Source of the DNA: a virus
Lineage: Duplodnaviria; Heunggongvirae; Uroviricota; Caudoviricetes
DNA length: 34,304 bases
Virus record (IMG/VR): IMGVR_UViG_2703718827_000010
Coordinates: 1 to 34,304 of that record
Reading direction: 5' to 3' (one strand)
A model generated the notes under the pieces. That model was given only the letters and a program-made list of their open reading frames with translations, did not search any database and was not told the origin of the DNA. This document shows, in pieces, positions 7,802-15,794 of this stretch. Each line of letters begins with the position of its first letter. Positions within the stretch are counted from its first letter, which is position 1. A program made the translations under genes and the position numbers.

Positions 7802-8461
7802 TTAGATGTTCTGCGTTATCTGAACTACTTTGCCTACAATGCGGCAATTTCCATCAATTGGGATCGGCTTAAAGGCGGGATTAAGCGGCATTAAATATGA
7901 GTAAGGGCTATCCCAAACAAGTTTCTTCACAGTCGCTTCTGCTGAACCATCGAGTATTGCTACGACAATTTTCCCATACAGGTCATCAAGTTGTCCGTAG
8001 TGTGGTTCAACGATAACGATTGACCCCTCCGGAATTGATGGAAGTCCGTGTGGGTTAGTCATTGACTCACCACGAACTACCAAACCGAAAACTTCATCAG
8101 AAACGTTTGCTGTGGTTTGAGTCCATGAAATCACATCAGTAAGCCTTGAGCATGCATAGGTATCAGTCCATACCCCGGCCTGAACAGCAGAGATAATAGG
8201 AACGGCCGTAGGTGGCTTCAGGTATGGGATAACTTTGGTGTCATCTTGAGTCTCATCACCCTTGCCGTAAAGAATCCATTCAGGAGTAGTCTGTAAAGCC
8301 ATCGCTAGTTGGTGAAGGTTTTCTCCGTCAGGCTTAGTTGTACCGTTCTCCCATTTGGTAACGGACACTCTACTCACCCCAAGGCGTTTAGCCAGGGTCT
8401 GCTGAGTTATATCGAGCTGGACTCGCCGGGATCTTATTCGGTCTTTCATCTCTGTTTTCAT
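7802..8461 (-). CDS. cI: CI-like prophage repressor (HTH XRE domain plus S24 LexA-like autopeptidase domain)
   Basis: N-terminal HTH (QQTLAKRLGVSRVSVTKWENG); C-terminal S24 peptidase region (VVRGESM...KIVVAIL); divergent from cro. Confidence 0.85.
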   Translation of the reverse strand: MKTEMKDRIRSRRVQLDITQQTLAKRLGVSRVSVTKWENGTTKPDGENLHQLAMALQTTPEWILYGKGDETQDDTKVIPYLKPPTAVPIISAVQAGVWTDTYACSRLTDVISWTQTTANVSDEVFGLVVRGESMTNPHGLPSIPEGSIVIVEPHYGQLDDLYGKIVVAILDGSAEATVKKLVWDSPYSYLMPLNPAFKPIPIDGNCRIVGKVVQITQNI

Positions 8462-8524
8462 GTAACCAATGTTACATTGATTCCTTGTAACTGTTGTTTG
8501 CTATTTAATGTACCTTTTGTTACC
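8461..8524. promoter_or_regulatory. cI-cro intergenic operator/promoter region: palindrome TGTAACCAATGTTACA (8461-8476) plus 18-nt motif copy AATGTACCTTTTGTTACC (8507-8524)
   Basis: Palindrome abuts the cI start codon; motif shared with the two copies left of cI; half-site resembles TGTAAC/GTTACA. Confidence 0.45.
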
Positions 8525-8553
8525 TTTAAGGCGTGAGTTAACCAGGAGGAACC

Positions 8554-8751
8554 ATGCTTAAAACTGACGTCATAGAACACTTCGGAGGGGTATCAAAAAC
8601 CGCGAGTGTTTTGGGAATTTCTCATCCTGCAGTGTGCCGATGGGGTGATGTGATCCCTCAGAAGCAAGCTTTTGTTATCGAACGTATCACTAAAGGCAAG
8701 CTTAAATACGATGCCAGCCTTTACCAAAAGTCTACAGACACAGCAGCTTAA
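8554..8751 (+). CDS. cro: Cro-like small HTH regulator
   Basis: 65-aa protein divergent from cI, AGGAGG RBS, HTH segment GGVSKTASVLGISHPAVCRW. Confidence 0.7.
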   Translation: MLKTDVIEHFGGVSKTASVLGISHPAVCRWGDVIPQKQAFVIERITKGKLKYDASLYQKSTDTAA

Positions 8752-8776
8752 ACATAACTACCAAAGGAAAAACAAG

Positions 8777-9241
8777 ATGGTAGAGCAGACCCTGAAAGAA
8801 GTAGTGAAAGCGATGTGCAAGGCGTACCCCGGAGGCCGTCAGGCTATGGCTGGCGCGTTAGGCATGTCAGAAACCCAGTTCAACAACAACCTGTACGAGA
8901 AAAACGGATGCCGGTTCTTTGAAGTAACTGAGCTGGAAGCGATGGAAGACATTTCCAATACGTCATTTGTTGCTGACTACTTTGCTAAGCGTCGTGGCGC
9001 ACTGCTGGTGGACGTGCCAAGCCTGGAAGATCTGGACCGTGTTGACTTGTTCAGTCGTGCAATGCGTACAGCAGCTGCAAGGGGGCAGGTTGATCAGATT
9101 ATCCAGAAGGCGCTTGAGGATGGAGTGATTGAAAAGCATGAAGCTGAAGAGATTCAGGAACATCACCGCCGTCATCTGGCAGCGCGTGAAGAAGAAATCC
9201 GCGCGATTGTGGCCTTATTCAGCCGCCGTCAAAAGAAGTGA
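8777..9241 (+). CDS. CII-like early regulatory protein (start at internal ATG 8777)
   Basis: Position directly after cro; 154-aa protein MVEQTLKEVVKAMCKAYPGG...; assignment by position and general resemblance to phage CII/CP76-type regulators, not verified. Confidence 0.5.
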   Translation: MVEQTLKEVVKAMCKAYPGGRQAMAGALGMSETQFNNNLYEKNGCRFFEVTELEAMEDISNTSFVADYFAKRRGALLVDVPSLEDLDRVDLFSRAMRTAAARGQVDQIIQKALEDGVIEKHEAEEIQEHHRRHLAAREEEIRAIVALFSRRQKK

Positions 9242-9302
9242 CGCCAGCGAGTGTGCAGCTCCTGGCGTCGTGGCGTGTCGTATTCAGTGGAGAAACTAAC
9301 GC

Positions 9303-9641
9303 ATGAACAGTGTAACAACACAGTACCGCAGGTCGCAACTTATTGCTCGACCTATGCCGGGTGGAAAAGGTCCGGCGCAGTTCGTGTATGGGGTAATGGT
9401 ATCCGGATGCTTTGAGCCTGTCTGCTACCAGTTTGCCGATTGGGTTGTAGGTGATTTCAACGGCCAGGCGGAGAAGGTCGAATGCGAGCACTCAACAGAC
9501 GGTTTAAAGACAGCTACGGCGTCCCAGTCAGGGTTATCCGGTGGGAACCAGAAACTCAACGGGTTATATACCTGCGCGATGGATACGAGCATGAGTGCTT
9601 CAGTCCTCTCGAACAGTTTCAGCGTAAATTCAGGGAAATAG
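9303..9641 (+). CDS. Hypothetical protein; C-terminal half may be read-through in the wrong frame (see overlapping ORF 9482-9694)
   Basis: GGAGA RBS 9 nt before ATG; ends 10 nt before the O-like start; C-terminal half is low-complexity S/T/G-rich. Confidence 0.35.
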   Translation: MNSVTTQYRRSQLIARPMPGGKGPAQFVYGVMVSGCFEPVCYQFADWVVGDFNGQAEKVECEHSTDGLKTATASQSGLSGGNQKLNGLYTCAMDTSMSASVLSNSFSVNSGK

Positions 9642-9694
9642 AGGATCAGAATGAGCCTGTTAATGACATCACGGCCAATAGTGATAAATCCTGA
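9482..9694 (+). CDS. Hypothetical small protein overlapping both 9303-9641 and the O-like gene start
   Basis: 70-aa ORF with globular-looking composition (RVIRWEPETQRVIYLRDGYEHECFSPLEQF); AAGG RBS; frame closed upstream by TGA at 9452. Confidence 0.4.
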   Translation: MRALNRRFKDSYGVPVRVIRWEPETQRVIYLRDGYEHECFSPLEQFQRKFREIEDQNEPVNDITANSDKS

Positions 9695-10559
9695 CCTTGC
9701 ATACAGCATTGGCCTGAATGAGGCGATTGCATTGCAGCAGATTAATTACTGGCTGCAAGAAACTAAGTCAGGCATGGAGCGTGACGGTGTTCGCTGGATT
9801 TACAACACGACAGAACAGTGGCTGGAGCAGTTCCCGTTCTGGTCTGAGTCGACCCTGAAGCGTACCTTCACCCGCCTGAAGACACTCGGCGTGCTCAAAA
9901 TTGAGCAGTTGAACAAGTCTCAACGCGACATGACCAACTTCTACACGATCAACTATGAAAGCGAGCTTTTAGATGAAGTCAAAGTGACCGAATCGAAGAG
10001 GTCAAAATGCGCTGTTCCATCAGGTCAAAATGACACGATGGAAGAGGCCAAAGTGACACACTCCATCAGGTCAAAACGAACCGCTGTCATCAGGTCAAAA
10101 TGCACTGATGATCCTACAGAGAATACAACAGAGAGTACTACAGAGATTACAGGTAAAGACTCTTGTCCGGTTGCAGGGCAACCAGACCCTGAAGTTGTGA
10201 TTACTGATCAGGCGATTTTGGTGTTGTCCCATTTGAACCAAATCAGCGGATCCCGGTATCAGAAGTCAAAAACATCCCTGGAGAACATCCGTGCCCGACT
10301 GCGTGATGGTTACAGCGTTGCTGACCTGCAACTTGTTATCGACCTCAAACATGAGCATTGGCACGAGAACGACGAGCAGTACCAGTACATGCGACCTGAA
10401 ACGCTGTTCGGACCGAGGAAATTTGAGAGCTATCTGCAAAGCGCCACCCGCTGGAACCAGAAGGGACGACCCAAGCGTGCTGACTGGGGCGCTAAAAGGC
10501 GCGATGTGATGGATTTTGGTCCTGTTGATACAACGATTCCTGCGGGCTTCAGGGGGTAA
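9651..10559 (+). CDS. Replication initiation protein (lambda O-like replisome organiser) with in-gene origin iterons
   Basis: Position after cII; AGAGGA RBS; central repetitive RSK-rich linker encoded by direct DNA repeats; conserved-looking C-terminal domain. Confidence 0.65.
   Translation: MSLLMTSRPIVINPDLAYSIGLNEAIALQQINYWLQETKSGMERDGVRWIYNTTEQWLEQFPFWSESTLKRTFTRLKTLGVLKIEQLNKSQRDMTNFYTINYESELLDEVKVTESKRSKCAVPSGQNDTMEEAKVTHSIRSKRTAVIRSKCTDDPTENTTESTTEITGKDSCPVAGQPDPEVVITDQAILVLSHLNQISGSRYQKSKTSLENIRARLRDGYSVADLQLVIDLKHEHWHENDEQYQYMRPETLFGPRKFESYLQSATRWNQKGRPKRADWGAKRRDVMDFGPVDTTIPAGFRG
9975..10102. repeat. Iteron array (candidate ori) inside the O-like gene
   Basis: CATCAGGTCAAAA(T/C)G at 10018-10032, 10064-10078, 10088-10102; partial AGGTCAAAATG at 9999-10009; CAAAGTGAC variants nearby; A-rich stretch downstream. 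Confidence 0.6.
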
Positions 10560-10561
10560 CG

Positions 10562-11005
10562 ATGAGCTTACTGAAAACTATCCAGATGTTTGTAGCTCAG
10601 AACCCTGGGCTAACCAACAAGCAGATAGCTGCAGCACTGACAGAATACGATATTCAGTCGGTTCAGCGTGCCGTATGCCGACTAGTTGATACAAAGCGTG
10701 CAACACGTAAACACGCGGGAAAGTGTTATCGCTATTACGCAGAACCGCCAGCAGATTGCCACTTCGAGGTTTTTGAACCAACCCCTGAAGTCAGCGCACT
10801 GATGGAGACGGCGAAATGTCTGGAGTCGAAAGGCCTCTTTCACCGTGCCGCGACGATATACATGCAAGCGTTCAGCGTGTCAGCCATTGAATCAGAGCGA
10901 GCAGCAATTCTGGCAGAACGTCAGCGCTGTCTTGGCCTGGCTAAGCCAGCAGTTATTACCGAAGACGGATGCTATCTGTCTGGTCGATTTTCGGGAGGCC
11001 GTTAA
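10562..11005 (+). CDS. Hypothetical protein, possible winged-helix regulator (PerC-like assignment uncertain)
   Basis: 147-aa ORF immediately after O-like gene; N-terminal HTH-like segment LTNKQIAAALTEYDIQSVQRAVCRLV. Confidence 0.45.
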   Translation: MSLLKTIQMFVAQNPGLTNKQIAAALTEYDIQSVQRAVCRLVDTKRATRKHAGKCYRYYAEPPADCHFEVFEPTPEVSALMETAKCLESKGLFHRAATIYMQAFSVSAIESERAAILAERQRCLGLAKPAVITEDGCYLSGRFSGGR

Positions 11006-11673
11006 TGAACTACTCATTGATTTACGCAGATCCGCCGTGGGAATACGGAAACACCATCAGCAATGGTGCAGCGGAAAACCATTACGGCACGATGAAACTC
11101 ATCGACATAAAACGCCTGCCTGTCTGGGAGCTGGCTGCGGAAAATTCCGTTCTGGCCATGTGGTTCACCGGTACACACACCCGCGAAGCTATCGAACTGG
11201 CTGAGGCATGGGGTTTTAAGGTTCGGACCATGAAGGGATTCACCTGGGTGAAGCTTAACTCACTGGCAGAACAGCATATCAATAAAGCGCTTCAGGCTGG
11301 TGGTGTAGAGGACTTTTACGACTTCCTCGACCTGTTGAACGCTCAGACCCGAATGAACGGTGGTAACTATACCCGCGCCAATACCGAGGATCTGTTAATC
11401 GCTACCAGAGGGAAAGGTCTTGAGCGTCAGAATGCGAGCGTAAAACAGGTTATCTACAGCCCACTCAGCGAACACAGCCAGAAGCCAGCAGAAGCGCGTT
11501 ACCGTCTGGAGCAATTATACGGCGATGTATCACGCATTGAGTTGTTCAGCCGCTGTTCGGCTCCCGGCTGGCATCACTGGGGAAATCAGGCAGAAAATCC
11601 TGATGTAATCATGTCACCTGGTTACGTTGGTAAACCTGCTCCGCTGCTGGAGGTGGCTTATGCAGGACGTTGA
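11005..11673 (+). CDS. MT-A70 family DNA N6-adenine methyltransferase (orphan, no cognate nuclease seen)
   Basis: DPPW motif (LIYADPPWEY) near N-terminus; GGAGG RBS before ATG 11005; track ORF starts at 10969. Confidence 0.8.
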   Translation: MNYSLIYADPPWEYGNTISNGAAENHYGTMKLIDIKRLPVWELAAENSVLAMWFTGTHTREAIELAEAWGFKVRTMKGFTWVKLNSLAEQHINKALQAGGVEDFYDFLDLLNAQTRMNGGNYTRANTEDLLIATRGKGLERQNASVKQVIYSPLSEHSQKPAEARYRLEQLYGDVSRIELFSRCSAPGWHHWGNQAENPDVIMSPGYVGKPAPLLEVAYAGR

Positions 11674-11878
11674 AGCACGTAACGCGCTTCGTAACATCGC
11701 CAGAAGATGCAACGAGGAAATAACCGCTAAACGCAAGGCTAATCCTGGTATGAATTGTGACGAAATAGCCAGGCCAATTTTTAACGGTGCCATGGGGATG
11801 GTTAAGCAACTTGGCTTTACGCCATCTCATTTGTATCTCGAAGTCGGGATTCTGAACAAGCGGATTAAGGAGCGCTGA
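11660..11878 (+). CDS. Hypothetical small protein
   Basis: GGAGG RBS before ATG 11660; 72 aa; overlaps end of methyltransferase gene. Confidence 0.45.
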   Translation: MQDVEARNALRNIARRCNEEITAKRKANPGMNCDEIARPIFNGAMGMVKQLGFTPSHLYLEVGILNKRIKER

Positions 11879-11879
11879 A

Positions 11880-12200
11880 GTGAACAAACTTACCGTGAGA
11901 CAAAGTGAAGTACTTGGTTCGATCGTGAACTATCAGCGCCGGTTCGGATTCCCTCCAACGATATGTGAACTGGCTGGGCTGATTGGTTGCTCATCACCGA
12001 ACGCTGCAGCGGAGCATGTGAAGGCCATAGCGAAGAAGGGATATATCTCAGTTGCGCCTGGAGTTTCCAGAGGGATTACCGTTATTTCAGCAAACGATGA
12101 GGTAGACGCGATATCGATCATCAAGTCACTCATTAACGGTGATAGCGATTCAAGAGAACGCGCCTTGTCATGGCTGGAAGCGAGAGGTGTTCAGCAATGA
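11880..12200 (+). CDS. LexA N-terminal DNA-binding domain homologue lacking the S24 peptidase domain
   Basis: GTG start; residues about 5-70 align with the LexA wHTH domain (LTVRQSEVL...GFPPT..ELA...G..SPNAAAEHVKAIAKKGYI...GVSRGI); only 106 aa, no Ala-Gly cleavage/peptidase region. Confidence 0.65.
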   Translation: MNKLTVRQSEVLGSIVNYQRRFGFPPTICELAGLIGCSSPNAAAEHVKAIAKKGYISVAPGVSRGITVISANDEVDAISIIKSLINGDSDSRERALSWLEARGVQQ

Positions 12201-12586
12201 AACTAACGTTGCCATTCCCGCCAACTGTTAACACCTATTACCGGTCCCCTGACCGCGGCGCGTTAAAGGGTAAGCATCTGATAAGTGAGATGGGGAGGAA
12301 GTTCAAGAAGAATGTTTACGCCTCTGTTGTGCAGCAGTACGGCGGTATACCTAAACCAGTTAACGTCAACGTTGAGGTAAACATAGTTCTTTTCCCGCCA
12401 GATAACAGACGGCGGGATCTGGACAACTACAACAAAGCGCTGTTCGACGCACTGACGAATGCCAGAGTCTGGGAAGACGATAGTCAGGTTAAGCGGATGG
12501 CTATCGAGTGGGGGCCGGCAGTAAAGCCTGGAAGGGTAGAAATAACGATCAGCCGTTTTGAAACTGTGGCGGGTGCAGCCGCCTGA
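12197..12586 (+). CDS. rusA: RusA-family Holliday junction resolvase
   Basis: MKLTLPFPPTVNTYY N-terminus and conserved acidic residues (RRRDLDNYNKALFDAL...WEDDSQV); ATGA overlap with upstream gene. Confidence 0.8.
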   Translation: MKLTLPFPPTVNTYYRSPDRGALKGKHLISEMGRKFKKNVYASVVQQYGGIPKPVNVNVEVNIVLFPPDNRRRDLDNYNKALFDALTNARVWEDDSQVKRMAIEWGPAVKPGRVEITISRFETVAGAAA

Positions 12587-12602
12587 TAAGTGGAGACAGA
12601 GC

Positions 12603-13328
12603 ATGAATCAGATGAACATCACCGTAATGTGCCAGGCACACCATACAGCAGCTGTTGGGCAGCAGATAACCATGTCCAGCCGTGAGATTGCAAAACTGGT
12701 CGATTCCCGGCACAGCAATGTCTGCGTAACGATAGAGCGCCTCATGAATTCCGGTGTGATTGAAGGGTATGCTGCATTGCAGTACACCCATCCCCAGAAC
12801 GGACAGACCTATCATCACTACGAAGTGAATAAGCGTGATAGCTATGTGATCGTTGCCCAGTTGTCACCAGAGTTCACGGCCCGACTTGTTGACCGCTGGC
12901 AGGAACTGGAGAACAACGGTGGAATGATAGTTCCCCGGTCACTTCCTGAGGCGCTGCGGCTTGCTGCTGACCTGGCTGAGCAGAAACAACGGCTGAGTGA
13001 AGAACTGGCAGTAGCCGCGCCAAAGGCTGAGTTTGTTGACCGTTACGTTATGGCCACCGGTTCAATGACATTCCGGCAGGTTGCCAAGCTGCTTAACGCC
13101 AAAGAGACGGAGTTTGCGATGTTCCTGATTGAGAACGGCATCATGTACCGGCTTAACCGTGTTCTCACGCCAAAGAGCAAGCATATCGAAGCAGGGCGCT
13201 TCGAGGTGAAGACGGGCACGACAAACCAGACAAATTACGCGTTCAATCAGTCCCGCTTCACCGCCAAGGGTGTTCGCTGGATTGGTGGCCTGTGGGCAGA
13301 GCATATTGCTAAGGGGCAGATAGCGTGA
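12603..13328 (+). CDS. Antirepressor (Rha-type N-terminal domain plus KilA-C-type C-terminal domain)
   Basis: N-terminal ITMSSREIAKLVDSRHSNVCVTIERL resembles Rha family; C-terminal AEFVDRYV...TFRQVAKLL...FLIENGIMY resembles KilAC; GGAGA RBS. Confidence 0.7.
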   Translation: MNQMNITVMCQAHHTAAVGQQITMSSREIAKLVDSRHSNVCVTIERLMNSGVIEGYAALQYTHPQNGQTYHHYEVNKRDSYVIVAQLSPEFTARLVDRWQELENNGGMIVPRSLPEALRLAADLAEQKQRLSEELAVAAPKAEFVDRYVMATGSMTFRQVAKLLNAKETEFAMFLIENGIMYRLNRVLTPKSKHIEAGRFEVKTGTTNQTNYAFNQSRFTAKGVRWIGGLWAEHIAKGQIA

Positions 13329-14314
13329 GGGTACTACTGACACCTGAAGTGGCACCAATGACCGGAGTAGTGATATTTCGCCCAGGCAATGAACTGATGC
13401 ATCTGTTCAGACGCGGGCGGGTTCTTATCGAGCCACAGGCAGAGTCTATGTCTGAGTTGCCGTCAGGACTGTTGCCAGAGACGGAGCAGGAGCTTAAAAA
13501 CGATCCGTTAATGCGTGATGTCTTCGAAAACAAGAAGGTAATTAACCGAGCTGGTGGACTCAATTCACTGGATGCCTGGCTCGAAAGAAAACTGGAATGT
13601 CAGTACCCACACAGCGAGTGGCACGATCGCAACTACACCATCACTCGGCATGCACCTGGCTCAATCCGCACGTGCTGGGGCTGTGACTTAAAAATTCGTG
13701 ATCAGTTCACTGAAGGTCTGGCGGGTATAGCCCGTGAAAACCTGGTATCCTGGCTACTGAAGGTTGTAAACGGCCAATTAGGTTTCAGTGAGGACCACAT
13801 TCTTACACTGCCGGAGTTTTGCTGGTGGATGGTCAGGAGCGACCTGGCTGATGAGATACCTGAAGCCGTAGCACATAAAGCTCTTCGTCTGAAGAAAGAG
13901 TCCCACCAGTCGGTAACACGTGAAAGCGATATTGTTCCGGCATTACCCGCCAAACAACTGGTACAGGAGAAAGCGAAAAAGATAGTGGCAATGAAGGTTG
14001 ACCCAGAGACGCCGGAATCCTTCATGCTTAAACCCAAGCGTCGCCGCTGGGTGAATGAGAAATACACGAGATGGGTTAAGGCCCAGCCGTGCGTCTGCTG
14101 TAACAAGCAAGCTGACGACCCCCACCACCTGATTGGCCACGGGCAGGGTGGAATGGGTACAAAGGCACACGACCTGTTTGTGATTCCTCTGTGCAGAGAG
14201 CATCACGACGAGTTGCATGCTGATCCTGTGGCATTTGAAGCGAAATACGGTGACCAACTGGTCCTGGTGTTTCGGGTTATAGATCGTGCGCTGGCAATCG
14301 GCGTACTGGCGTAA
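13325..14314 (+). CDS. NinG/DUF968-like protein with C-terminal Cys/His cluster
   Basis: C-terminus PCVCCNKQADDPHHLIGHGQGG...CREHHDELH; typical position between rusA/ant and Q. Confidence 0.55.
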   Translation: MRVLLTPEVAPMTGVVIFRPGNELMHLFRRGRVLIEPQAESMSELPSGLLPETEQELKNDPLMRDVFENKKVINRAGGLNSLDAWLERKLECQYPHSEWHDRNYTITRHAPGSIRTCWGCDLKIRDQFTEGLAGIARENLVSWLLKVVNGQLGFSEDHILTLPEFCWWMVRSDLADEIPEAVAHKALRLKKESHQSVTRESDIVPALPAKQLVQEKAKKIVAMKVDPETPESFMLKPKRRRWVNEKYTRWVKAQPCVCCNKQADDPHHLIGHGQGGMGTKAHDLFVIPLCREHHDELHADPVAFEAKYGDQLVLVFRVIDRALAIGVLA

Positions 14315-14328
14315 GTGGAGAACGCTAA

Positions 14329-14907
14329 ATGATTAATCCTTCTGAAGTTGGTAAATCTGGTGAAATGGTTCGTCTTCGTACTCTGGAAAGCATCTGGATA
14401 CAGGGTAAGTTGCGCATGTGGGGCCGCTGGTCTTATATCGGCGGTGGTAGTGGTGGGAACATGTTTAACCAGCTTCTGGCATCCGGGAAAATCACCAAGA
14501 CAGCTATCAATGATGCTCTGCGCAGAATGAAGAAATCAGGAATCACCAAGCCTGAACTTGAAGCGTACCTGCGTGAAATTCTCAACAGCAAAAATAAAAG
14601 CGGTCTGGCGTTCTGTTCAGACGAAGAAGGGTTGTTAGTGGATGGTGTCATTGCTTCTGTACTGATGAATGATGACTACCGATCGCTCTATAGCGTGATT
14701 GTCGACCGCCATCGCCTACGCAAGAGCAAGCTGCAGATGGCCAATGAACTGCAGGCTAAACATCCTGACTGGCCGCTGATCACCTGTCGTCGACGCATTG
14801 ACACTTGGCTAAGTCTTGCAGAATCGATCCTGTACGCTCCAGTTTGTGACGCATTCGGCACAAATAGCGACAGATTTAAGTTGCAGAGTGAGCAAGAAAG
14901 TGCTTAA
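14329..14907 (+). CDS. Putative late-gene antiterminator (Q-like), assigned by position
   Basis: Last gene before a tR'-like terminator and the lysis cassette; sequence not matched to a specific Q family from memory. Confidence 0.45.
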   Translation: MINPSEVGKSGEMVRLRTLESIWIQGKLRMWGRWSYIGGGSGGNMFNQLLASGKITKTAINDALRRMKKSGITKPELEAYLREILNSKNKSGLAFCSDEEGLLVDGVIASVLMNDDYRSLYSVIVDRHRLRKSKLQMANELQAKHPDWPLITCRRRIDTWLSLAESILYAPVCDAFGTNSDRFKLQSEQESA

Positions 14908-14957
14908 ATTGTGGTAGGCTCGGGACGTTAAAGCGAACTGAGCAACAAACATCAAGA

Positions 14958-14981
14958 ACCCGCCATTGAGCGGGTTTTTTG
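14958..14981 (+). terminator. tR'-like intrinsic terminator downstream of Q
   Basis: Stem ACCCGC / GCGGGT with 6-nt loop followed by TTTTTTGTGT. Confidence 0.65.
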
Positions 14982-15044: not shown

Positions 15045-15794
15045 ATGGAAATTATGGAGTTAGTTAAACCTGGGAGTTGGATCGACAGTGATGATAGCCA
15101 ATGGTCTCGAAATGTTGAGCGTATTATCAGTCAGTTAGAGTCTTGTTTTAATGAAGCATTTGTGTCACTTTTATTTTTTGATAGAGAAATAGCGAATGTA
15201 CAAGGCGCTTTTGAATCTAGAAGAGAATGGTTGGAAGACAGAGAGGAAAGGATTCAAATTCAAAAATCTATAGAACATGAGTTTGACTTAAGTGTTTTTG
15301 AAAATCATGATAAGTTAAGTAAAAAAGTAGAATCAATCCTTAATCAAAAAAAATTAAATGAATGGAAACTACCAAGTTATTTGCAACATAGCTTGCCTTT
15401 TATATATGCGAAATCATTTTTATATTCATTGGATACAATCGAAAAAATAATTAATATTCTTCCTGAGGAACCAGAAGTCCAAAGTAGAATATCTAAAATT
15501 AAAATGATGATGGGTGAGGCTTTTCCAGATTTAATTCATGTCAGAGACTCATCACACCATATTGAAGATAGAGTATTAGGAAAGAAACGAGGTAAATTGA
15601 TTGAGTTACAACCCATTGATGATGGTGGAATAAAATCTGAGGGTGGTGTACTTGTTATTAGTCATTTGTCTGGCTCTAGTTTCGGTTGCACAATGGGTAA
15701 TGGTAGTTACGGCAAGGTTGATGTTACACGTGAAACATTAGAGGTTGTGCGTGATATAATTCAGAAAGTTATTGATTCATTTAAATGGAAATAA
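15045..15794 (+). CDS. Hypothetical moron protein (249 aa) in the Q-to-lysis slot
   Basis: AGGAGG RBS; strongly AT-rich with AGA Arg codons; bracketed by two terminators; contains RDSSHH (R-x4-H) segment. Confidence 0.7.
   Translation: MEIMELVKPGSWIDSDDSQWSRNVERIISQLESCFNEAFVSLLFFDREIANVQGAFESRREWLEDREERIQIQKSIEHEFDLSVFENHDKLSKKVESILNQKKLNEWKLPSYLQHSLPFIYAKSFLYSLDTIEKIINILPEEPEVQSRISKIKMMMGEAFPDLIHVRDSSHHIEDRVLGKKRGKLIELQPIDDGGIKSEGGVLVISHLSGSSFGCTMGNGSYGKVDVTRETLEVVRDIIQKVIDSFKWK

Follow-up and report, generated by a model that had tools for sequence, protein, structure and literature searches.

A stand-alone LexA-type DNA-binding domain protein encoded between the replication and Q genes of a lambdoid prophage

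The locus and its transcription unit

The 34,304-nucleotide (nt) stretch of DNA analysed here (the window; IMG/VR virus record IMGVR_UViG_2703718827_000010, Caudoviricetes) is a lambdoid prophage which encodes, between its replication protein and its Q-like antiterminator, a protein of 106 amino acids (aa) composed of a LexA-type winged helix-turn-helix (HTH) and a family-specific C-terminal extension, with neither the autocleavage site nor the Peptidase_S24 domain of LexA. The open reading frame (ORF) for this LexA DNA-binding domain (DBD) protein had been placed by a preliminary description, made from the sequence alone, at exactly the coordinates found here; it lies on the plus strand and starts with GTG (Table 1). 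That description mentioned neither the two-helix tail of the protein, nor the position of its gene in a delayed-early operon, nor the full retention of the residues with which LexA reads CTGT, as opposed to the differing helix of gp6, the truncated LexA homologue of phage GIL01.

The gene is packed tightly between its neighbours. A single nucleotide separates its GTG from the TGA (11876-11878) of a 72-aa ORF, which was found in all close relatives and which in the window stands between the methyltransferase slot and the LexA-DBD gene, while at the other end the overlap of its stop codon with the ATG of rusA, as ATGA, suggests that the two genes are translationally coupled. From the replication gene through Q, genes abut or overlap, and a consensus scan found no sigma-70-like site between positions 9000 and 15000 that might provide the LexA-DBD gene with a promoter of its own. 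Considering also the terminator that follows Q, the gene would be read as part of the delayed-early (pR, or nin-type) operon, and its product would be made only after induction or infection. The mechanical ORF starts in this region are probably too far 5' (window 12558-12603 and 12170-12197). For rusA the most likely start is the ATG at 12197 (MKLTLPFPP…), in agreement with the gene calls in sibling loci; for the Rha/ANT gene the ATG at 12603, with GGAG 9 nt upstream, is the likely one, and the sibling-locus calls concur.

Table 1. Coordinates of the LexA-DBD gene, its subregions and the surrounding prophage features in the window
Feature	Position	Strand	Remarks
Integrase	1-1170
cI repressor	7802..8461	-	HTH_3 + Peptidase_S24; SOS-sensitive switch of the prophage
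CII/CP76-like protein	8672-9241
Replication protein	9651-10559
PerC-like protein	10562..11005	+	First gene of the conserved block; PHROG 1324 'transcriptional activator', E = 2.5e-53
MT-A70 family DNA methyltransferase	10969..11673	+	In the conserved block
72-aa ORF	11660..11878	+	PHROG 303; overlaps the end of the methyltransferase gene; directly 5' of the LexA-DBD gene
Predicted ribosome-binding site, AAGGAG	11867..11872	+	7 nt 5' of the GTG; read directly from the sequence
LexA-DBD-only ORF (PHROG 362 / SfV Orf42 family)	11880..12200	+	106 aa; GTG start, TGA stop
LexA-type winged HTH, residues 1-70	11880..12089	+	Helices 6-22, 28-35, 40-52; strands 56-58, 66-68
Recognition helix SPNAAAEHVKAIAK, residues 39-52	11994..12035	+	S39, N41, A42, E45 as the base contacts of LexA; A44 replaces LexA E44
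Family-specific C-terminal extension, residues 71-106	12090..12197	+	Two predicted helices, 71-86 and 91-100
rusA, Holliday-junction resolvase	12197..12586	+	ATG overlaps the LexA-DBD stop
Rha + KilAC/ANT antirepressor-like gene	12603..13328	+	Probable ATG 12603, 17 nt after the rusA stop
DUF968 / HNH protein	13325..14314	+	In the conserved block
Q-like antiterminator, DUF1133 / Phage_antitermQ	14329..14907	+	Terminator follows
Terminator	14954-14979		After Q; predicted end of the delayed-early operon holding the LexA-DBD gene
Lysis and morphogenesis genes	Downstream of the terminator

A LexA winged helix without the autocleavage module

The preliminary description had aligned the first 70 residues of the protein with the LexA winged helix. 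A profile search could have led to an unrelated winged-helix family; the assignment to LexA was unambiguous instead. The Pfam family LexA_DNA_bind (PF01726) was matched with E = 5.6e-18 and 64.9 bits (cutoff 23.7) over all of its 65 profile positions and residues 1-65 of the protein, so that the gathering threshold was passed across the whole domain. In a phmmer search against the PDB, residues 1-74 aligned with residues 1-74 of Escherichia coli LexA at E~1e-15, with SPNAAAEH facing SPNAAEEH and SRGI facing SRGI. An AlphaFold2 model, built on 13 homologues (mean predicted local distance difference test score, pLDDT, 86.9), comprises a three-helix winged HTH followed by two more helices, and Foldseek superimposed it on DNA-bound LexA (3JSO) with a root-mean-square deviation of 0.7 Å over 68 columns at 47% identity, the N-terminal domain of E. 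coli LexA being taken as residues 1-69.

The claim that the protein lacks both the cleavage site and the S24 domain was borne out as well. No match to Peptidase_S24 was found in the 106-aa protein by the Pfam search, even at E<=10, and the NCBIfam lexA equivalog TIGR00498 gave 61.1 bits, under its cutoff of 110.95, and was covered at profile positions 1-90 of 203 only. The pair aligned with Ala84-Gly85, the Ala-Gly autocleavage site of LexA, is Asn86-Gly87 and lies within a predicted helix. Since the protein has neither the cleavage site nor the S24 domain for Ser/Lys proteolysis and dimerisation, activated RecA (RecA*) would be unable to make it cleave itself. By cleavage site, S24 domain and equivalog score alike, the protein is thus not a LexA orthologue; it is a member of PF01726 and of PHROG 362. 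The cI repressor resident in the window, which the preliminary description had credited with an S24 domain, does have one. Cellular LexA itself gives rise to a DNA-binding domain separated from the S24 module, namely its N-terminal cleavage fragment (residues 1-84), which binds operators weakly and is quickly degraded by ClpXP via its newly exposed C-terminus; the window protein differs from this fragment in having a structured tail and another C-terminal end (…RGVQQ). No PADLOC defence-system model matched the LexA-DBD protein or its neighbours, generic methyltransferase models excepted.

According to a review of the crystal structure of LexA bound to its operator, the main readers of the CTGT half-site are S39, N41, A42 and E45 (PMC11442139), while an earlier summary counts E44, too, as a DNA-contacting residue (PMC3091678). 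All four main readers are present in the window protein, which also has in common with E. coli LexA the wing motif GxSRGI and the N-terminal LTxRQ. In an alignment of the clade, consisting of 13 sequences with identities to the window protein down to 45%, S39, N41 and A42 are invariant and E45 is found in 12 sequences; the entire segment S39-H46 is identical in 12 of the 13, the single change being E45G, even though identity over the whole protein drops to 45%. Wing residues G61, R64, G65 and I66 and the N-terminal T5, R7 and Q8 are likewise invariant in the clade and the same as in LexA.

The tail sets the protein apart from LexA, as does its residence in a presumed delayed-early phage operon. 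Within the clade L84, R92 and L99 are invariant and D76, I80, G87, A95 and W98 nearly so. An exhaustive profile search yielded ~20 clusters (at 50% identity) that align through position 100-105 and have in common a pattern like xxIIRxLLxGxxxARxRAxxWLxxxG. Both the 106-aa length and the tail, which is conserved and amphipathic-looking, persist in homologues with as little as about 35-45% identity. Neither the PDB nor Pfam yielded a match below E~0.1 to a profile of 15 tails. LexA dimerises via the domain that is absent here, and isolated LexA N-terminal domains bind operators weakly; on these grounds the tail probably takes the place of the S24 dimerisation and autocleavage domain and supplies dimerisation. 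The tail was also considered as a relic of the LexA cleavage region, since MAFFT sets its 'ALLxG' on 'RVAAG'; this idea was set aside because G87 is not conserved in the wider family, and the alignment is not relied upon.

Related proteins combine the same head with other modules. P0011 (157 aa, 24 member sequences) is the same as the window protein over residues 1-62 and continues into an unrelated C-terminal region of ~85 aa, a natural tail swap that fits a modular head-plus-tail design. Many other proteins (P0049, P0050, P0053, P0054, P0071 and P0121 among them) carry tandem LexA DNA-binding domains on one chain, as built-in pseudo-dimers; P0071 also has a PTPS domain and P0121 a weak Peptidase_S24 match.

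Contact residues identical to those of LexA would also suit a protein that competes with or modulates host LexA without repressing, by occupying SOS half-sites or by meeting LexA on DNA, and that would thereby tune or prolong the SOS response or alter LexA rebinding. Phages do modulate LexA by other means, GIL01 gp7 being an example. The protein has no LexA C-terminal dimerisation domain, however, and hence no obvious route to a heterodimer, and a winged HTH bound across a promoter normally represses, so that we judge such a role improbable.

Relatives, gene order and distribution

The gene and its family are already known and annotated; no published functional study of the enterobacterial PHROG 362 family was found in a literature search. 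PHROG 362, labelled 'transcriptional repressor', is matched end to end, tail included (E = 5.4e-44, positions 1-105 of 106). In a public assembly collection, 804 blocks contain the exact 106-aa sequence, and two complete E. coli genomes, ET5 and FAM21845, match the window at 100% identity over 941 nt surrounding the gene while differing from it in the tail region; RefSeq annotates the product there as 'LexA family protein' or 'LexA family transcriptional regulator'. A tblastn search found relatives in 63 phage records, 60 of them with >=80% query coverage; identity is 59% for mEp390 and ~44% for SfV orf42, mEp460, cdtI, SfII, SfIV and many Stx2a/Stx2c phages. Labels in phage records include 'LexA DNA binding domain protein' (mEp460), 'repressor, lexA family', 'LexA-like protein' and 'transcriptional repressor'. 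The hosts of homologues are E. coli, Shigella, Citrobacter, Enterobacter, Kluyvera, Klebsiella and Salmonella, and many stand-alone viral LexA-DBD proteins are also found in BFVD.

The SfV Orf42 family proteins (mEp460, SfII, cdtI, Stx2a/Stx2c) share with the window protein a length of 106-107 aa, the winged HTH, the two-helix tail and the genomic slot, and differ from it in the recognition helix, which reads RSVNAAVEH in the SfV/Stx-phage clade and SSPNAAAEH in the window. PHROG 362 members occupy a delayed-early, nin-type slot 5' of DUF968 and Q, usually directly before rusA. The order replication, PerC-like, methyltransferase, LexA-DBD, rusA, KilA/Rha, DUF968, Q is common to SfV, mEp460 and Stx2a_1447; that of mEp390 is as in SfV minus the methyltransferase. 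The slot 5' of the LexA-DBD gene holds unrelated methyltransferase families (window 10969-11673 compared with L002/L004 and L001): MT-A70 in the window, a Dam-type enzyme in SfV, mEp460 and Stx2a phages, and a 317-aa unknown protein in mEp390. The PerC-like gene, which adjoins the methyltransferase gene and matches Pfam PerC at threshold, is a second putative regulator in the window. For the DUF968 protein, sub-threshold matches were obtained to HNHc_6 and to RecA_dep_nuc (P1 Ref-like RecA-dependent nuclease), the latter of which would be a further tie of the block to RecA/SOS biology.

Such neighbours raise the question of whether the protein is a DNA-binding accessory of the rusA/DUF968-HNH/methyltransferase recombination-replication block rather than a transcription factor. 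Its gene is flanked by a DNA methyltransferase and recombination nucleases and is always coupled to rusA in the window, the loci L006-L011, SfV, mEp460, mEp390 and Stx2a_1447. Against this, distant members in Klebsiella ST846-OXA48phi9.1 and Hafnia yong2 have no adjoining rusA, the methyltransferase slot is filled by unrelated families or by none, and a sequence-reading helix under strong purifying selection better suits an operator-binding regulator; the chances of an accessory function are accordingly small.

The DNA shared with sibling loci is confined to about window 10700-14979, and no fewer than three types of cI/Cro and two of Q accompany the identical protein. An identical large terminase also occurs in prophages that have a helicase-primase/NinG early region and no LexA-DBD gene (L044, L046, L048, L052 and L053), and in the L053 assembly MT-A70 leads straight into a shortened Rha gene, with neither the LexA-DBD gene nor rusA remaining. 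These absences indicate that the gene is dispensable and mosaic, as would be expected of a functionless remnant of a captured lexA. Nevertheless, the occurrence of the exact sequence in so many collection blocks, the conserved length and tail, a recognition helix that is invariant bar one substitution, the good ribosome-binding site and the tight spacing or overlap with neighbouring genes all speak against loss of function, and we regard a mere remnant as highly improbable.

SOS-type operators and candidate roles

From the retained contacts, the tail and the operon position we infer the DNA specificity, dimeric state, regulatory sign (repression) and targets of the protein and tentatively propose that it is a RecA-insensitive mimic of LexA that closes SOS-type operators during lytic growth. 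It would appear in the delayed-early phase, after SOS induction has cleaved host LexA, would dimerise through its two-helix tail, and would rebind CTGT-type operators in trans, thereby closing them. Candidate targets are host SOS promoters, phage cassettes with SOS boxes (for example, the humD-like operon with which prophages of this type end on the right) and LexA-controlled genes of co-resident prophages. A search for a palindromic operator shared within the conserved block (window, SfV, mEp390 and L006) returned only the post-Q terminator hairpin and a repeat in the replication gene, and neither the block nor the DNA 3' of Q yielded a conserved palindrome, in a search that non-palindromic or weak sites would escape. 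Together with the several cI/Cro and Q types that accompany the identical protein, this argues against an operator specific to one immunity or late region and favours a target common to all hosts, or one lying elsewhere. The CTGT-N8-ACAG SOS box is shared among enterobacteria.

Several observations weigh against the proposed mimicry. It is the C-terminal dimer of LexA that fixes the N8 spacing of the SOS box, and another dimer would probably prefer another spacing. The residue corresponding to LexA E44 is Ala throughout the clade, and LexA R28 and R38 are I and S in the window protein (R28I/M/T and R38S/K/A across the clade). Across the tail-bearing family at large, A, V, T, F, S, L, Y or D stands at position 44, and E is not always kept at position 45; this variability suggests that DNA specificity has diverged in parts of that family, possibly in its distant branches. 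The search of the window for CTGT-N8-ACAG, by which the preliminary description had proposed to check its suggestion of SOS-box binding, gave no support: there were 0 exact sites against 0.4 expected and 16 one-mismatch sites against 12.4 expected, and a search for CTG-N10-CAG was also at chance level. A position-weight matrix made from 21 E. coli boxes picked out the ruvAB box, itself among the 21, in flanking host DNA; in the window its best score was 11.9 bits, compared with a mean best of 11.6 in shuffled sequence. Pairs of CTGT..ACAG and ACAG..CTGT at spacings of 0-24 nt showed no consistent enrichment in the window, SfV or mEp390. Finally, the sole characterised truncated phage LexA, gp6 of the Bacillus tectivirus GIL01, is an activator with its own operator: expressed early, it activates the late promoter P3 via its own palindrome, with Lys38 being essential (PMC6182141).

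GIL01 gp6 is the closest characterised case and, like the window protein, is a phage-encoded LexA DNA-binding domain minus the autocleavage domain. It is, however, a tailless protein of 66 aa that descends from a Bacillus-type LexA, is 27% identical to the window protein and finds its best match in PHROG 3502 (E = 1.8e-21), whereas that of the window protein is PHROG 362. Its recognition helix has been rebuilt (SHKTAHRYL, with K38) for its own palindrome, GaCACAnnTGTGaC, while the window helix is LexA-like, with Ser38 at the aligned position. The window protein is thus not a member of the gp6 family. The precedent nonetheless makes it conceivable, if on the whole unlikely, that the protein is a dedicated phage regulator acting on a phage promoter through an operator of its own rather than an SOS box; for the gp6 type this would be a palindrome that overlaps the -35 element of a late promoter. 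Fixation of E44A in the clade and variation at positions 44 and 45 beyond it are what diversification of specificity predicts, the loss of R28 and R38 together with a new dimerisation element could alter half-site spacing, and the PHROG label 'transcriptional repressor' is compatible with such a role. A gp6-like role is countered, apart from the divergence from gp6 and the retained LexA contacts, by the association of one identical protein with several immunity regions and Q types, by the lack of any shared palindrome in the block other than the Q-proximal terminator and the replication-gene repeat, and by the failure of CTGT-type palindromes to be enriched at any spacing.

Beyond the window, SOS-type boxes were found in several phages that encode the protein or its relatives. 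Contig CAJCMJ010000388.1, in which the identical LexA-DBD protein is also encoded, matches window 22291-34304 at 99.9% identity; it carries, ~4.1 kb past the point corresponding to the right end of the window (L016 16105-16124), the perfect-consensus box TACTGTATATAAAAACAGTA (26.7 bits), 15 nt 5' of an operon for a 79-aa protein (PHROG 3893, unknown function) and a 106-aa UmuD-like, HumD-type protein (PHROG 3469). The same box, TACTGTATATAAAAACAGTA, recurs just 5' of the 79-aa ORF in L017, and close variants occupy the same position in L015 and in the FAM21845 prophage (L014 7400). In two of the six sibling loci examined, L006 and L009, a box lies at the rusA stop (10685-10704 in both), an exact CTGT-N8-ACAG in L006 (AACTGTTCAAACATACAGGT, 18.2 bits) and a variant with one mismatch in L009 (15.3 bits). 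These two sit in a gap of ~110 nt 5' of a KilA-N or Rha/ANT gene and suggest that this antirepressor-like gene is controlled by LexA; the corresponding gap in the window is 17 nt and has no box. A scan of genome contigs for a rusA-proximal SOS box gave nearly all chance matches, plus one Citrobacter freundii contig. SfV has a match, TACTGTAAAAATAAACAGTG (L004 34170-34189), of 22.4 bits, above every shuffle, which overlaps the start of orf48, a late-region gene for a DNA methyltransferase that stands between Q and the lysis genes, and mEp390 has an SOS box 5' of a dinI-like gene. Boxes before dinI/humD-type genes are common in lambdoid prophages generally, which also weighs against the LexA-mimic reading, because their co-occurrence with the LexA-DBD gene then proves nothing. 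The phage-borne boxes thus show that plausible targets exist, not that the LexA-DBD protein uses them.

The LexA-mimic reading can be extended to a RecA-proof 'SOS super-repressor' that would shut down once more, during lytic growth, the host SOS regulon along with every element in the cell that LexA controls, a stronger version which we consider doubtful. Were it true, error-prone polymerases, SOS toxins, colicins and LexA-dependent antirepressors of rival prophages would be silenced, phage genome fidelity would be protected and competitors suppressed, and the tail could set an operator spacing of its own. More generally, if SOS boxes are bound, temperate enterobacterial phages, Stx2-converting ones included, could switch host SOS off whatever RecA does, with possible consequences for mutagenesis, for the expression of toxins and colicins and for how co-resident prophages are induced when an antibiotic triggers induction; the family would also provide a natural experiment on the LexA DNA-binding domain joined to another dimerisation module. 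As things stand, this is an ordinary, already annotated accessory gene of a family that occurs in Stx2 phages, and its existence will be no surprise to a specialist.

Some further features were noted in the window and in related prophages. Between the post-Q terminator and the holin gene, in a moron-like position, the window has a 249-aa ORF (15045-15794, plus strand) with an AT-rich 5' end, for which no Pfam or PADLOC match was found and which is also present in L051 and L053. In the E. coli ET5 prophage (L013), a tandem pair of SOS-like boxes (10973 and 10999) is situated close to the junction of prophage and host, and a diversity-generating retroelement (8455-10119), comprising avd and a reverse transcriptase gene, adjoins the tail-fibre genes.

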